Origin: Escherichia coli | GTDB lineage: Bacteria > Pseudomonadota > Gammaproteobacteria > Enterobacterales > Enterobacteriaceae | Assembly: GCF_003334355.1 (NCBI RefSeq) | Contig: NZ_QOWP01000009.1 | Length of the DNA stretch: 64,000 bases | Direction: 5' to 3' (one strand) | Shown: positions 45,008-52,417 of the stretch, one piece after another | Numbering within the stretch: the stretch's first letter is position 1 | Layout: each line of letters opens with the position of its first letter | The notes under the pieces: generated by a model | Told to the model about the DNA's origin: nothing | What the model saw: only the letters and a program-made list of their open reading frames with translations | The model's database searches: none | Translations under genes and position numbers: made by a program

Positions 45008-45913
45008 ATGCGTCGAACGTTTATCAAAAAAGAAGGCGTCGTCATCACGACGCTGGCCCGTTATTTGTTGGGTGAAAAGTGCGGTAATCGATTGAAAACC
45101 ATAGATGAGCTGGCAAATGAATGCCGTTCATCCGTTGGCCTGACGCAGGCCGCGTTGAAAACGCTGGAATCAAGCGGAGCGATACGGATTGAACGCCGTG
45201 GGCGCAATGGCAGTTATCTGGTCGAGATGGATAACAAAGCATTGCTGACTCATGTGGATATCAACAACGTGGTATGTGCAATGCCCTTGCCCTATACCCG
45301 TTTGTACGAAGGCCTGGCGAGCGGATTGAAAGCCCAGTTTGATGGCATTCCTTTTTACTATGCGCACATGCGTGGCGCGGATATTCGCGTGGAGTGTCTG
45401 CTTAATGGCGTGTATGACATGGCGGTGGTTTCGCGACTAGCGGCGGAAAGTTATCTCACGCAAAAAGGCTTATGCCTCGCGCTGGAGTTGGGGCCGCACA
45501 CCTACGTTGGCGAGCACCAGTTGATTTGCCGTAAAGGCGAGTCCGCAAACGTGAAGCGCGTGGGGCTGGATAACCGTTCGGCGGATCAGAAAATCATGAC
45601 CGATGTTTTTTTTGGCGGTAGTGATGTGGAACGAGTCGATCTCTCTTATCACGAGAGTTTACAACGCATTGTTAAAGGCGATGTCGATGCGGTGATCTGG
45701 AACGTGGTGGCGGAAAACGAACTGACCATGCTGGGATTAGAGGCGACGCCGCTCACAGACGATCCGCGATTTTTACAGGCCACCGAAGCCGTGGTCCTGA
45801 CGCGAGTCGATGATTACCCAATGCAACAACTGCTGCGTGCCGTTGTAGATAAACACGCCCTGCTCGCCCATCAACAACGGGTAGTGAGTGGGGAACAGGA
45901 ACCGAGTTATTAA
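45008..45913 (+). CDS. yhfZ: Putative transcriptional regulator YhfZ
   Basis: 301 aa; first gene of the yhfZ-yhfS cluster; function not established to my knowledge. Confidence 0.8.
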   Translation: MRRTFIKKEGVVITTLARYLLGEKCGNRLKTIDELANECRSSVGLTQAALKTLESSGAIRIERRGRNGSYLVEMDNKALLTHVDINNVVCAMPLPYTRLYEGLASGLKAQFDGIPFYYAHMRGADIRVECLLNGVYDMAVVSRLAAESYLTQKGLCLALELGPHTYVGEHQLICRKGESANVKRVGLDNRSADQKIMTDVFFGGSDVERVDLSYHESLQRIVKGDVDAVIWNVVAENELTMLGLEATPLTDDPRFLQATEAVVLTRVDDYPMQQLLRAVVDKHALLAHQQRVVSGEQEPSY

Positions 45914-45929
45914 ACGAAAGGCATCTGAT

Positions 45930-46292
45930 ATGGAAACCAGACTCAACCTGCTTTGCGAGGCAGGCGTTATTGATAAGGACATCTGCAAAGGCATGATGCA
46001 GGTCGTCAACGTACTGGAAACAGAGTGCCATCTGCCGGTGCGCAGTGAGCAAGGAACGATGGCGATGACACATATGGCGAGTGCACTGATGCGCAGTCGC
46101 CGTGGTGAAGAAATAGAGCCGCTGGATAACGAGTTGCTGGCAGAACTGGCGCAATCCAGCCACTGGCAAGCCGTTGTGCAATTGCATCAGGTGTTGTTGA
46201 AGGAATTCGCACTGGAAGTTAACCCGTGTGAAGAAGGCTATTTGCTGGCCAACCTTTATGGATTATGGATGGCTGCTAACGAAGAGGTTTGA
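45930..46292 (+). CDS. yhfY: PRD-like domain protein YhfY
   Basis: 120 aa from the ATG at 45930 (METRLNLLCEAG...); ORF track opens 14 codons upstream. Confidence 0.75.
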   Translation: METRLNLLCEAGVIDKDICKGMMQVVNVLETECHLPVRSEQGTMAMTHMASALMRSRRGEEIEPLDNELLAELAQSSHWQAVVQLHQVLLKEFALEVNPCEEGYLLANLYGLWMAANEEV

Positions 46293-46375
46293 AGCTCCCG
46301 ACAAATCCACGTCGCACAACCTAAATATTCAAAAAAATGAATATTTAATTCAAGGAACAGAAACGAGGCAACAAG

Positions 46376-50004: not shown

Positions 50005-50015
50005 AAGGCACGACT

Positions 50016-51320
50016 ATGGATCTGTATATTCAGATTATCGTGGTGGCGTGCCTGACGGGTATGACATCGCTTCTGGCGCATCGCTCGGCGGCTGTTTTTC
50101 ATGACGGCATCCGCCCGATCCTGCCGCAACTGATTGAAGGCTATATGAACCGTCGCGAGGCGGGGAGTATCGCTTTTGGTCTGAGCATTGGTTTTGTGGC
50201 CTCGGTGGGGATCTCTTTTACCCTGAAAACCGGGCTGCTCAACGCATGGTTACTCTTTCTTCCTACCGATATCCTCGGCGTCCTGGCGATAAACAGCCTG
50301 ATGGCGTTTGGTCTTGGCGCTATCTGGGGCGTGTTGATCCTTACTTGCCTGTTGCCAGTAAACCAGCTGCTGACCGCGCTGCCGGTGGATGTATTAGGTA
50401 GCCTGGGGGAATTAAGCTCGCCGGTGGTTTCAGCTTTTGCACTGTTCCCGCTGGTGGCGATTTTCTACCAGTTTGGCTGGAAGCAAAGTCTGATCGCCGC
50501 CGTGGTGGTACTGATGACCCGTGTGGTAGTCGTGCGCTATTTCCCACATCTTAACCCTGAATCCATCGAAATCTTTATTGGCATGGTGATGCTGCTGGGG
50601 ATCGCGATAACTCACGACCTGCGTCATCGTGATGAAAATGACATTGATGCCAGCGGGCTTTCGGTGTTTGAAGAACGCACGTCACGGATTATCAAAAACT
50701 TACCCTATATCGCCATCGTGGGAGCATTGATTGCCGCCGTTGCCAGCATGAAGATTTTTGCTGGCAGTGAAGTGTCGATCTTCACACTGGAGAAAGCATA
50801 TTCCGCAGGCGTAACGCCGGAACAATCGCAAACGCTGATTAATCAGGCGGCTCTGGCAGAATTTATGCGCGGACTGGGGTTTGTGCCGTTGATTGCCACC
50901 ACCGCGTTAGCAACGGGTGTGTATGCAGTTGCGGGCTTTACCTTTGTTTATGCGGTGGGCTATCTCTCGCCGAATCCGATGGTTGCAGCGGTATTAGGCG
51001 CAGTGGTTATTTCGGCGGAAGTCTTGCTGCTTCGTTCGATCGGCAAATGGCTGGGACGCTACCCGTCGGTGCGTAATGCGTCGGATAACATCCGTAACGC
51101 CATGAATATGCTGATGGAAGTGGCGCTGCTGGTCGGTTCGATTTTCGCAGCAATTAAGATGGCGGGTTATACCGGATTCTCTATCGCGGTTGCCATTTAC
51201 TTCCTCAACGAATCCCTGGGCCGTCCGGTACAGAAAATGGCGGCACCGGTCGTGGCAGTAATGATCACCGGTATTCTGCTGAATGTTCTTTACTGGCTTG
51301 GCCTGTTCGTTCCGGCTTAA
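50016..51320 (+). CDS. yhfT: Polytopic inner-membrane protein YhfT (putative transporter)
   Basis: 434 aa, almost entirely hydrophobic helices. Confidence 0.8.
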   Translation: MDLYIQIIVVACLTGMTSLLAHRSAAVFHDGIRPILPQLIEGYMNRREAGSIAFGLSIGFVASVGISFTLKTGLLNAWLLFLPTDILGVLAINSLMAFGLGAIWGVLILTCLLPVNQLLTALPVDVLGSLGELSSPVVSAFALFPLVAIFYQFGWKQSLIAAVVVLMTRVVVVRYFPHLNPESIEIFIGMVMLLGIAITHDLRHRDENDIDASGLSVFEERTSRIIKNLPYIAIVGALIAAVASMKIFAGSEVSIFTLEKAYSAGVTPEQSQTLINQAALAEFMRGLGFVPLIATTALATGVYAVAGFTFVYAVGYLSPNPMVAAVLGAVVISAEVLLLRSIGKWLGRYPSVRNASDNIRNAMNMLMEVALLVGSIFAAIKMAGYTGFSIAVAIYFLNESLGRPVQKMAAPVVAVMITGILLNVLYWLGLFVPA

Positions 51321-51331
51321 GGAAGGCACCT

Positions 51332-52417
51332 ATGAAGACGTTTCCTCTGCAAAGCCTGACGATTATTGAGGCGCAGCAAAAGCAGTTTGCGCTGGTGGAT
51401 AGCATTTGTCGCCATTTCCCCGGCAGCGAGTTTCTTACTGGCGGTGATTTAGGCTTAACGCCAGGACTGAATCAACCGCGCGTTACCCAGTGTGTGGAAC
51501 AGGTGCTGGCTGATGCATTTCACGCACAGGCTGCGGCGCTGGTGCAGGGCGCGGGGACTGGCGCGATTCGCGCCGGGCTGGCGGCTTTGCTCAAACCGGG
51601 GCAGCGTCTTCTGGTGCATGACGCGCCTGTTTACCCGACGACACGGGTTATTATTGAGCAGATGGGGCTGACGCTTATTACTGTTGATTTCAATGACCTG
51701 TCGGCACTGAAGCAGGTCGTCGACGAGCAACAACCGGATGCGGCACTGGTGCAGCATACGCGCCAGCAGCCGCAGGACAGCTACGTGCTGGCAGATGTGC
51801 TGGCAACGTTGCGCGCGGCAGGTGTTCCAGCGTTAACCGATGACAACTATGCGGTGATGAAGGTGGCTCGAATCGGCTGTGAATGCGGCGCGAATGTCTC
51901 GACATTTTCCTGCTTCAAGCTATTTGGGCCAGAGGGTGTTGGTGCAGTGGTCGGCGATGCTGATGTTATCAACCGTATTCGCGCCACGCTTTACTCCGGC
52001 GGTAGCCAGATCCAGGGCGCACAGGCGCTGGAAGTATTGCGTGGTCTGGTGTTTGCGCCAGTGATGCACGCGGTGCAGGCAGGGGTATCTGAACGGTTGC
52101 TGGCTTTGCTTAACGGTGGTGCGGTGCCGGAAGTGAAAAGCGCGGTGATTGCTAATGCGCAGTCGAAGGTGTTGATTGTCGAGTTTCATCAGCCGATTGC
52201 CGCCAGAGTGCTGGAAGAGGCGCAAAAGCGCGGTGCCTTGCCTTACCCGGTGGGTGCAGAGTCGAAATATGAAATCCCGCCGCTCTTTTATCGCCTTTCC
52301 GGAACGTTTCGCCAGGCGAATCCACAATCAGAACATTGTGCGATTCGCATTAACCCGAATCGCAGCGGTGAAGAGACGGTGCTGCGGATTTTGCGTGAGA
52401 GTATTGCCAGTATTTAA
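51332..52417 (+). CDS. yhfS: Putative PLP-dependent enzyme YhfS
   Basis: 361 aa; last gene of the cluster; followed by repeat elements. Confidence 0.8.
   Translation: MKTFPLQSLTIIEAQQKQFALVDSICRHFPGSEFLTGGDLGLTPGLNQPRVTQCVEQVLADAFHAQAAALVQGAGTGAIRAGLAALLKPGQRLLVHDAPVYPTTRVIIEQMGLTLITVDFNDLSALKQVVDEQQPDAALVQHTRQQPQDSYVLADVLATLRAAGVPALTDDNYAVMKVARIGCECGANVSTFSCFKLFGPEGVGAVVGDADVINRIRATLYSGGSQIQGAQALEVLRGLVFAPVMHAVQAGVSERLLALLNGGAVPEVKSAVIANAQSKVLIVEFHQPIAARVLEEAQKRGALPYPVGAESKYEIPPLFYRLSGTFRQANPQSEHCAIRINPNRSGEETVLRILRESIASI

Follow-up and report, generated by a model that had tools for sequence, protein, structure and literature searches.

Background

The closest described counterparts of the system considered here are bacterial routes for sugar lactones and amino-sugar acids. 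The system itself is the gene cluster yhfZ-yhfY-yhfX-yhfW-php-yhfU-yhfT-yhfS (hereafter the yhf cluster), which lies in a 64,000-nucleotide stretch of Escherichia coli DNA (contig NZ_QOWP01000009.1 of RefSeq assembly GCF_003334355.1) that was analysed as a whole and is referred to below as the window. In the ula system (UlaABC plus UlaG), and in systems of Listeria and Mycoplasma, the phosphotransferase system (PTS) imports a sugar lactone and a metal hydrolase opens the phospho-lactone. The dga system of Salmonella, reportedly described by Miller et al. in 2013, is said to combine a D-glucosaminate PTS with the ammonia-lyase DgaE and the aldolase DgaF. Some background is available on clusters of the dga and EF_0829 types (PMC9529869), the latter being an enterococcal set with SFCGS, DUF4310-4312, amidohydrolase, DgaE and KDGP-aldolase members. 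In the ong pathway of Pseudoalteromonas prydzensis, OngB and OngC convert GlcNAc1A, an N-acetyl-2-amino-2-deoxy-aldonate, to the 2-keto-3-deoxy acid KDG (2-keto-3-deoxygluconate); OngC is distantly related to D-Ser deaminases and D-Thr aldolases, and the pathway has its own repressor and is found in marine Gammaproteobacteria, including Vibrio (PMC9537276).

The yhf cluster resembles each of these systems in part. With ong it shares the combination of an amidohydrolase-type hydrolase (OngB, as Php) and a fold-type III pyridoxal phosphate (PLP) enzyme (OngC, as YhfX), the likeness of YhfX to OngC being one of description and not of direct comparison. However, ong possesses an SSS transporter, a KDG kinase and RidA, has no phosphorylated amino intermediates, and lacks a phosphomutase, an RpiB-like protein, a PRD protein and a second PLP enzyme; furthermore, Php belongs to the phosphotriesterase (PTE) family and not to the D-aminoacylase family. 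The dga and EF_0829 types reportedly couple PTS-linked uptake to the formation of a phosphorylated 2-amino sugar acid, from which a PLP lyase removes the amino group, a scheme that the yhf genes may share. The EF_0829 type offers additional parallels in its small PRD protein (its PRD family TIGR03582, also called the EF_0829/AHA_3910 family, matches YhfY weakly, at 28 bits and below cutoff), its small glycine-rich Cys protein, its membrane proteins of unknown fold and its amidohydrolase-superfamily enzyme. In contrast to both types, the yhf cluster has no aldolase gene, its YhfS is not detectably DgaE- or SelA-like, a phosphomutase and a PLP enzyme of fold type III are present in addition, and YhfU and YhfT gave no match to the SFCGS and DUF431x models. 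As for ula and its relatives, the lactonases Lmo2620 and MS53_0025 belong with Php to the PTE family (matches to NF045706 and PDB 3PNZ), but these systems have known substrates, canonical enzymes IIA, IIB and IIC (EIIA, EIIB and EIIC) and no PLP enzymes, and Php reaches 102 bits against a lactonase cutoff of 630.

The genes, their names, five crystal structures and the orphan status of the set are already public (for four of the eight proteins a structure has been deposited under the label 'uncharacterized' or 'hypothetical', and Php has been solved as well), and the original prediction that led to this study, which was made from the sequence alone, rediscovered a known gap. What is new here is a candidate operator motif, a fold assignment for DUF2620, the linkage to PTS genes and the definition of core and accessory genes. 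A carrier family free of solved relatives, an obligate Cys protein of modelled RpiB fold and a stand-alone PRD protein, placed before a PLP/mutase/hydrolase pathway, put the cluster outside the characterised systems. We propose, with a probability of roughly 0.4, that it is a PTS-linked catabolic module for a compound of the amino-sugar or amino-sugar-acid type. The most likely substrate class would be a 2-amino-2-deoxy sugar acid (amino-aldonate), either as such or as a lactone or N-acyl derivative, for example the oxidised products of chitin or amino sugars. The candidate operator and its regulator, the substrate shortlist, the PTS dependency and the hypothesis on Cys52 of DUF2620 make the gap directly testable.

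Conservation of the module

A locus scan seeded with 11 YhfT sequences, with one genome per species, returned 80 loci, and in nearly all of them yhfZ, yhfX, yhfW, php, yhfU and yhfT lie within a few kilobases (tblastn). Open reading frames (ORFs) for YhfY-like PRD proteins are also present in these loci, often too divergent for BLAST. The seven genes yhfZ, Y, X, W, php, U and T occur together in Enterobacterales, Vibrionaceae, Sebaldella, Firmicutes and one contig that uses genetic code 4. Their order is Z-Y-X-W-php-U-T-S in Enterobacteriaceae, Z-Y-php-U-T-X-W in Vibrionaceae and Z-Y-U-T-php-(S)-X-W in Firmicutes; despite this shuffling the U-T pair, the X-W pair and the proximity of php to U-T are retained, and the flanking genes are unrelated from taxon to taxon. 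Metagenomic homologues of YhfT with just 27-29% identity are still accompanied by PRD, DUF2620, PTE, YhfX and Metalloenzyme genes. Apart from the eight, no family of genes was seen repeatedly in the loci. The set thus stays together from phylum to phylum, and the best explanation is that the cluster is a self-contained, horizontally exchanged (mobile) catabolic module. The original prediction had held that the genes form a self-contained functional unit, and the neighbourhood check bears this out, the same set being found in four phyla with unrelated flanks.

Not all eight genes are equal members. The most conserved enzyme pair is that of the PLP enzyme and the phosphomutase, whereas yhfS is missing from Yersinia, Vibrionaceae and several Clostridia and is an optional, accessory gene outside the core.

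Within E. coli the 7.4-kb block is matched in 5084 of 5426 complete genomes (~94%), and in 5062 genomes it is present at no less than 80% coverage and 90-100% identity; the cluster is among the larger operons of the best-studied bacterium that have no assigned function. There are 5099 matching places in all, one of which is on a plasmid, and a few genomes have two. About 6% of the complete genomes are without the cluster, and strain A30 retains only 35 bp of it. The ratio of nonsynonymous to synonymous divergence (dN/dS) of the eight genes is 0.00-0.16 against a divergent E. coli and 0.035-0.11 against Citrobacter and Klebsiella; that of yhfZ is 0.02-0.06, and the constraint on yhfU and yhfT matches that on trpS. 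Purifying selection acts on all eight.

Synonymous divergence is uneven within E. coli: against locus L093, dS is 0.40 for yhfS, 0.22 for yhfX, 0.10 for trpS and 0.08 for yhfY. In two further loci (L004 and L005) YhfT and YhfU are 100% identical, yet YhfX, YhfW and YhfS are only 92-95% identical. These uneven values and mixed identities suggest old alleles shuffled by recombination.

Two outlying contexts deserve mention. A cluster of the order GntR-DUF2620-YhfT-PRD-PTE-YhfS-YhfX was found on a contig of 30% GC (Logan SRR32062212); its frames are open only if TGA encodes Trp, which indicates a Mollicute-like, genome-reduced organism. Distant paralogues of YhfT that lack DUF2620 adjoin a methylthioadenosine/S-adenosylhomocysteine (MTA/SAH) nucleosidase in two contigs and a gene of the Orn/Lys/Arg decarboxylase family (L092, 8001-9978; L084, 1068-3765), and the YhfT transporter family may serve other substrates too.

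Link to the phosphotransferase system

In Firmicutes the cluster ends with a same-strand HPr gene in the loci L076 and L078 (73 bits against a cutoff of 47.9) and in L079, and in L072 an Enzyme I gene (738 bits) overlaps the end of yhfW, again on the same strand. In all, four Firmicutes loci close the cluster with a general PTS protein, adjacent or overlapping. A PRD protein is near-universal in the cluster loci. Through this protein and the HPr and Enzyme I genes the cluster is associated with the PTS. No kinase was found beside the cluster in the approximately 90 loci examined, and no EIIA gene is present in the cluster.

Other accessory genes end or adjoin the cluster. A Cof-type sugar phosphatase ends it in L085 and L086, and NagB ends it in L075 (294 bits, above the equivalog cutoff), while a homologue with 48% identity follows it in L077. 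The accessory last genes also include a ComB-type phosphatase (L075), and a ribose-type CUT2 ABC system (L089) and an AroE-like dehydrogenase adjoin an actinobacterial variant.

In Sebaldella (L059, 11347-12378) an inserted gene with an amidase-like signature separates yhfT from yhfS. A protein of Clostridium citroniae (768 aa, AFDB G5HJH7) that matches the YhfT fold carries the label 'Amidase domain-containing protein', which suggests a YhfT-amidase fusion. Together the two are a hint of an amide bond in the substrate in some lineages. Approximately 4-7 kb upstream of yhfZ, Vibrio and Photobacterium loci contain a PTS set of the cellobiose/chitobiose type. Its EIIC, of 443 aa, is encoded in eight Vibrionaceae loci, and L049, L061, L063, L069 and L070 encode an EIIA-like protein of 113 aa and a further protein of 296 aa; in L049 an EIIB-like ORF lies beside the EIIC gene, both on the opposite strand.

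YhfY is a lone PRD domain of 120 residues (Pfam PRD, E 9e-4) whose invariant residues are R4, T47, H48, A52, R55 and E101. It resembles BglG/LicT, MtlR and LevR in being a PRD protein with an invariant histidine, and HPr and Enzyme I genes lie beside some yhf clusters. Unlike those regulators, YhfY has no RNA- or DNA-binding domain and only a single invariant His; DNA binding falls to YhfZ, a polypeptide of its own from another family.

YhfU (DUF2620, 117 aa, beginning MKKIGVAGLQRE) is always encoded directly upstream of yhfT and, as modelled, has an RpiB-type fold. C52 is invariant and is accompanied by T/S54 (Ser in some Firmicutes members) in the loop GACNTGAG (G-A-C-N-T-G-A-G), which hhalign placed over I-C66-G-T68-G of an RpiB sequence (E 0.029, 1.7% probability). 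Profile matches over the Cys52 loop to the PDB entries 3ONO, 2PPW, 3QD5 and 3SDW are weak (E 0.06-0.4), there is no match to Pfam LacAB_rpiB, and the best NCBIfam match, PRK09273, reaches 17.6 bits against a cutoff of 137. RpiB has about 150 residues, with an N-terminal Asp-His and a C-terminal phosphate-binding helix. YhfU shares with it the modelled fold and has a loop that may correspond to the Cys-x-Thr-Gly loop, but it is shorter, has no significant family match and is without the N- and C-terminal catalytic and phosphate-binding parts. The RpiB-like fold leaves the reading of YhfU as a canonical EIIB unsupported.

YhfT is a polytopic membrane permease of the rare family PF10797, which has 305 representatives at 50% identity among 1.84 billion proteins. 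No close solved fold and no known EIIC fold was found for it, and its assignment to a known transporter fold was rejected; weak fold similarity exists to the anion/elevator carriers VcINDY, ArsB and NaCT. YhfT, YhfU and YhfY could conceivably form a PTS-dependent uptake system that has escaped recognition, with YhfT as a carrier of new fold, YhfU as an RpiB-fold phosphoryl carrier acting through Cys52 (or as an isomerase at the carrier), and the lone PRD protein replacing EIIA and the sensor. Such a system, which we regard as a long shot, would account for phosphorylated intermediates without a kinase or an EIIA, and for the cluster's own HPr and Enzyme I in some lineages. If it existed, PF10797/PF10941 would become a new family of transporters, and a nutrient route not described before would be added for gut, insect and marine niches; E. 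coli would have a PTS family of a new kind at the head of a new pathway for amino-sugar acids. If not, the cluster would be an ordinary substrate-specific catabolic operon.

Enzymes of the cluster

YhfX is the same protein as PDB 4KBX (labelled 'uncharacterized') and contains Pfam Ala_racemase_N (PF01168) and YhfX-like_C; its invariant K61 is probably the PLP lysine. After itself, its family profile finds the D-threonine aldolases 4V15 (E 1.1e-4) and 7DIB (E 3.2e-4), before PLPBP and alanine racemase, although these matches reach just 23-24 bits and cover the N-terminal barrel only. Against ornithine racemase YhfX scores 28 bits with a cutoff of 480. When the profile was run against a set of 5.8 billion proteins, the matches listed were close Enterobacterales relatives only and added no context.

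YhfW contains the invariant residues D10, G-D83-T84-x-x-G-H88 and D338-H339-G-N-D-P (69 family members; Pfam Metalloenzyme), the last of these being the DHGNDPT motif of the translation. The metal-ligand and Thr-nucleophile motifs of the alkaline phosphatase type are retained, with residue roles that we take to be those of phosphopentomutase (PPM) structures. YhfW is closest to DeoB, and the Bacillus cereus PPM 3M8W matches with an E-value of 3e-31, the best-scoring PDB match spanning residues 239-402 only. However, both DeoB models score below cutoff (PRK05362, 183.9 bits against 256; TIGR01696, 145.8 against 341.2), and YhfW is not a DeoB equivalog (EC 5.4.2.7) by these scores. The model NF009049, which names YhfW 'phosphopentomutase' and matches it end to end (742 bits, 1-408 of 408), is assumed to have been built around the YhfW group itself. 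A paper of January 2026 still terms YhfW a 'putative mutase'.

Php is the same protein as PDB 1BF6 and 4LEF, the latter presumably with bound phosphate, to judge from the PDB title. The HEHLHID of its translation belongs to a metal-ligand set of the PTE type (invariant H12, H14, E125, H158, H186 and D243 in 74 sequences; Pfam PTE), and the model NF007373 gives 655 bits. At about 100 bits Php is equidistant from the phospho-furanose lactonases (NF045706, 102.4 bits against a cutoff of 630) and from the organophosphorus hydrolase (OPH) model (100.5 against 500); as a lactonase of the Lmo2620 type it does not reach the equivalog cutoff. Overexpressed Php feeds 2-oxo-3-hydroxy-4-phosphobutanoate, a phosphorylated keto sugar acid, into PLP synthesis (PMC3010111), and in 2021 its natural function was termed 'unknown' (PMC7954711).

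YhfS is the same protein as PDB 4J8L and contains Pfam Aminotran_1_2 and YhfS-like_C. Its nearest solved relatives, among the best 60 of 117 PDB profile matches, are methionine gamma-lyase, cystathionine gamma-synthase, C-S lyases and SufS; neither DgaE nor SelA is found among these 60 or among 18 NCBIfam matches, and one distant homologue has a weak match to the SelA Pfam family. YhfS as a DgaE homologue is unsupported, the profile matches being Cys/Met gamma-family enzymes, C-S lyases and SufS.

The original prediction had assigned YhfW to a mutase type, Php to the PTE/amidohydrolase fold and YhfX and YhfS to PLP enzymes, and had called YhfZ and YhfY regulatory. The Pfam, NCBIfam and PDB matches agree with the enzyme calls, as do the HTH_41 and PRD matches with the regulatory ones. 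It left YhfU, here of RpiB fold as modelled, undescribed and missed the connection to the PTS.

Candidate regulatory DNA

The palindrome ATNTTCA-N6-TGAANAT occurs three times in the window, where 0.01 occurrences are expected, and all three sites (O1-O3 in Table 1) lie in two promoter regions, two before yhfZ and one before yhfX. Exact matches recur at the same relative positions in 51 of 93 loci, those of Escherichia, Vibrio and Sebaldella among them; O3 is almost invariant from Escherichia to Cedecea, Firmicutes have a TACA-N6-TGTA variant before yhfZ, and in an upstream alignment of 11 genera the palindromes stand out as islands of conservation. YhfZ matches NF041241 at 373.6 bits (cutoff 260) and Pfam HTH_41 and YhfZ_C, and its C-terminal domain has been solved (PDB 2OZZ). 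YhfZ is probably the repressor of the module, and we infer that the palindromes are candidate YhfZ operators at the two promoter regions.

The CRP consensus is TGTGA-N6-TCACA. A CRP-like element upstream of O1, whose TGTGA half is invariant in the 11 genera, is likely a CRP site, implying catabolite control. The simplest reading of these elements would be that YhfZ is a regulator reserved for the cluster, that it works at two promoter regions and that catabolite control is superimposed. The conserved candidate operator before yhfX suggests two regulated promoter regions and not one, and the expectation of a single self-contained operon holds for the unit as such, but probably not for its transcription, which would involve two co-regulated units.

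The proposed pathway and its alternatives

In the pathway that we propose, YhfZ would repress the promoters PyhfZ and PyhfX through TTCA-N6-TGAA palindromes until the substrate or an intermediate released it, and YhfY, as a PRD protein, would make repression dependent on how far the PTS is phosphorylated. Import of the compound would fall to YhfT together with YhfU, its obligate partner, and the phosphate on the intermediates would most probably come from the PTS phosphorelay and not from a kinase. Php would hydrolyse a lactone, lactam, ester or N-acyl bond, by ring opening or deacylation, and YhfW would shift the phosphate between two hydroxyls in the manner of phosphopentomutase. YhfX would use PLP to act on the carbon that bears the amino group in a D-configured 2-amino-3-hydroxy acid or its phosphate, leading either to deamination, which would give a 2-keto-3-deoxy acid, or to retro-aldol cleavage, with the products passing to central metabolism. 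YhfS may be an accessory C-X lyase used in some lineages only. For three of the enzymes the nearest characterised relatives (DeoB, RpiB and the phospho-furanose lactonases) have furanose- or pentose-type phosphates as their substrates. The chemistry of the PLP step follows two pathways established by experiment, ong on the one hand and the dga and EF_0829 types on the other, the latter reportedly handling compounds that resemble D-glucosaminate-6-phosphate by PTS-type uptake, an amidohydrolase and a PLP ammonia-lyase.

Several points weigh against this proposal. The roles of YhfW and YhfU are its weakest part and stay unexplained, because amino-aldonates can be broken down without a phosphomutase and without an aldose-ketose isomerase. 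Every match of the cluster enzymes to characterised families is far below the family cutoff, YhfS is nearest to sulfur-amino-acid lyases and not to DgaE, and the distant YhfT paralogue beside the MTA/SAH nucleosidase points elsewhere. The steps cannot all be obligatory, since yhfW is missing in several Yersinia and Enterovibrio has U-T-X-W only, without php, yhfZ and yhfY. The binding of YhfZ to the palindromes is a prediction only, and a simple scan found no consensus sigma-70 promoter upstream of yhfZ or yhfX. Finally, in line with the original prediction, no assignment of a substrate to the cluster was found in a body of 8 million papers reaching to 2026, in which yhf names mostly denote unrelated Bacillus subtilis or Staphylococcus aureus genes or serve as abbreviations, and in which mentions of yhfZ and yhfW in screens are non-functional. 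Muramic delta-lactam, S-ribosylhomocysteine, homoserine lactone, Heyns and Amadori products and bacillithiol fragments were considered as substrates, and the computation speaks neither for nor against them.

The original prediction had pointed to a phosphorylated amino compound, which fits the phosphomutase, the two PLP enzymes and the phosphatases and NagB of the variants, whereas the substrate itself stays a matter of inference. In that reading the compound would come from a host or the environment and be salvaged in already phosphorylated form, YhfT would be an ordinary secondary organophosphate carrier that adds no phosphate during import, and the PRD protein and HPr would serve catabolite control only. 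The phosphomutase and accessory phosphatases in the lack of a kinase in any locus, the lack of an EIIA gene, the likeness of YhfT to VcINDY, ArsB and NaCT, and the presumed phosphate in Php crystal 4LEF are all in keeping with it. However, dedicated HPr and Enzyme I last genes and a near-universal PRD protein would be unusual for mere catabolite control, the obligate U-T pairing is left unexplained, and free phosphorylated amino sugars or acids are not known to be abundant as external nutrients; we consider such salvage unlikely. More doubtful is a pathway whose substrate is an amino acid, ribose-linked or of the thioether type, that stems from nucleoside or S-adenosylmethionine metabolism (such as S-ribosylhomocysteine or 5-thio/5-deoxy-ribosyl compounds). 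Here YhfW and YhfU would act on the pentose as analogues of DeoB and RpiB, YhfS would cleave a C-S bond as a lyase, and the amino-acid moiety would be left to YhfX. It would make sense of the closeness of YhfW to phosphopentomutase, the modelled RpiB fold of YhfU, the methionine gamma-lyase, cystathionine gamma-synthase and C-S lyase relatives of YhfS, the nucleosidase beside the YhfT paralogue in two contigs and the ribose-type CUT2 system in L089. Yet C-S cleavage cannot be the core chemistry, as yhfS is absent from most lineages; no phosphorylase or kinase is there to supply a pentose 1-phosphate; the nucleosidase context belongs to one distant paralogue without DUF2620, YhfX and YhfW; and Php would have no obvious role.

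Catabolism of a D-amino-acid lactam, ester or cell-wall fragment (muramic delta-lactam, D-alanyl esters or an amino-acid lactam), with Php opening or deacylating the substrate and YhfX as a racemase, would agree with the annotation of YhfX as a predicted amino acid racemase, its Ala_racemase_N fold and weak ornithine racemase match, with the Sebaldella amidase gene and the C. citroniae fusion, and with NagB after the cluster in two Bacilli. We think it improbable, as the cluster is present in the wall-less, code-4 (Mollicute-like) organism, the racemase match lies far below its cutoff (28 bits against 480), D-Thr aldolases score better in the profile search, and the phosphomutase again has no explained role. 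That the cluster is a cryptic, decaying remnant without function in E. coli might be supposed from the lack of any phenotype or inducer reported in the literature and of a consensus sigma-70 promoter in the scan, but it is already contradicted by the selection data, with eight intact reading frames in 5062 genomes, dN/dS values at the low levels given above both within E. coli and against other genera, and conserved regulatory palindromes, and we give it hardly any credence. The same holds for the idea that the cluster extends the fructoselysine (Amadori) system encoded by frl. The frl operon does adjoin the cluster in the window and in most E. coli, and the original prediction had offered this as context. 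However, the two are convergent, not co-oriented, with hairpins between them; yhfS is followed by yhfL-cysG-nir without frl in E. coli AVS0196 and SCPM-O-B-8794 and in most Enterobacteriaceae, with cysG-nir in place of frl in Citrobacter, Klebsiella and Buttiauxella; and no frl gene lies beside any of the 80 related loci. The adjacency is uninformative, because it is not conserved even among E. coli, and a functional link to frl was rejected, neither linkage nor co-orientation being conserved.

Layout and borders of the cluster

The eight genes form a continuous run on the plus strand (45008-52417 in the mechanical ORF list), and the RefSeq annotation of an identical E. coli locus has the same eight genes between trpS and frlR (Table 1). 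As read from the sequence, the yhfX/yhfW junction is gcgTAATGgcg at 47537-47541 and the yhfW/php junction is cctATGAgt at 48762-48765; the largest intergenic gap is 83 bp, between yhfY and yhfX. The core CTTATCCGGCCTAC of the repetitive extragenic palindromic (REP) element, with at most two mismatches, occurs at three sites in the window against 0.23 expected, and these sites, 44772(+), 44813(-) and 52553(+), are exactly the two cluster borders. The original prediction had described the same-strand genes, the TAATG and ATGA overlaps, the protein motifs and the flanking REPs, all of which are present in the sequence, and had read the REP-bounded block as one operon; the REPs do stand at both borders, but REP elements do not define an operon. 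The element upstream of yhfZ has been counted among attenuator clusters of the bacterial interspersed mosaic element (BIME) type (PMC2965389).

Table 1. Positions of the yhf genes, of candidate regulatory sites and of border elements in the window
Feature	Position	Strand	Description
BIME, two inverted REP elements	44751-44845		Between trpS and the cluster
trpS intrinsic terminator	44865-44886	+	GC stem, then T run (terminator scan)
CRP-like site	44917-44932		TGTGA-N6-TCGCC; likely CRP site
O1, candidate operator	44959-44978		ATCTTCA-N6-TGAAGAT
O2, candidate operator	44983-45002		ATATTCA-N6-TGAAAAT; ends 5 bp before the yhfZ ATG
yhfZ	45008-45913	+	HTH_41 winged-helix and YhfZ_C ligand-binding-type domain
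yhfY	45930-46292	+	Stand-alone PRD-domain protein; annotated ATG, mechanical ORF begins at GTG 45888
O3, candidate operator	46325-46344		Within the 26-bp palindrome TAAATATTCA-N6-TGAATATTTA (46322-46347), which ends 28 bp before the yhfX ATG
yhfX	46376-47539	+	Fold-type III PLP enzyme
yhfW	47539-48765	+	Phosphopentomutase-like metalloenzyme of the alkaline phosphatase superfamily
php	48762-49640	+	PTE-family binuclear metallohydrolase, amidohydrolase superfamily
yhfU	49651-50004	+	DUF2620, protein of modelled RpiB/LacAB fold
yhfT	50016-51320	+	Polytopic membrane permease, PF10797
yhfS	51332-52417	+	Fold-type I PLP enzyme, accessory module member
Two strong hairpins 3' of yhfS	52446-52568		Between convergent yhfS and frlR; RNA fold z-score -5.0

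The hairpin pair downstream of yhfS consists of a G-rich palindromic element (52446-52500) and a REP (52531-52568). The former, an imperfect palindrome of sequence CCCCTCGCCCCTTTGGGGAGAGGGTTAGGGTGAGGGG in the interval between yhfS and the REP, is present in one copy in the window, forms a strong hairpin and may well belong to a further family of intergenic repeats of enterobacteria. No Rfam family, riboswitches included, was found in or around the cluster at gathering thresholds. Beyond the hairpins, the frl operon (frlRDCBA, 52569-57000) is a presence/absence polymorphism within E. coli (L093, L004). The mechanical ORF of frlR (53366) begins at a GTG that precedes the annotated gene (732 bp) by 66 bp, and this GTG is probably merely an in-frame start codon 5' of the gene.

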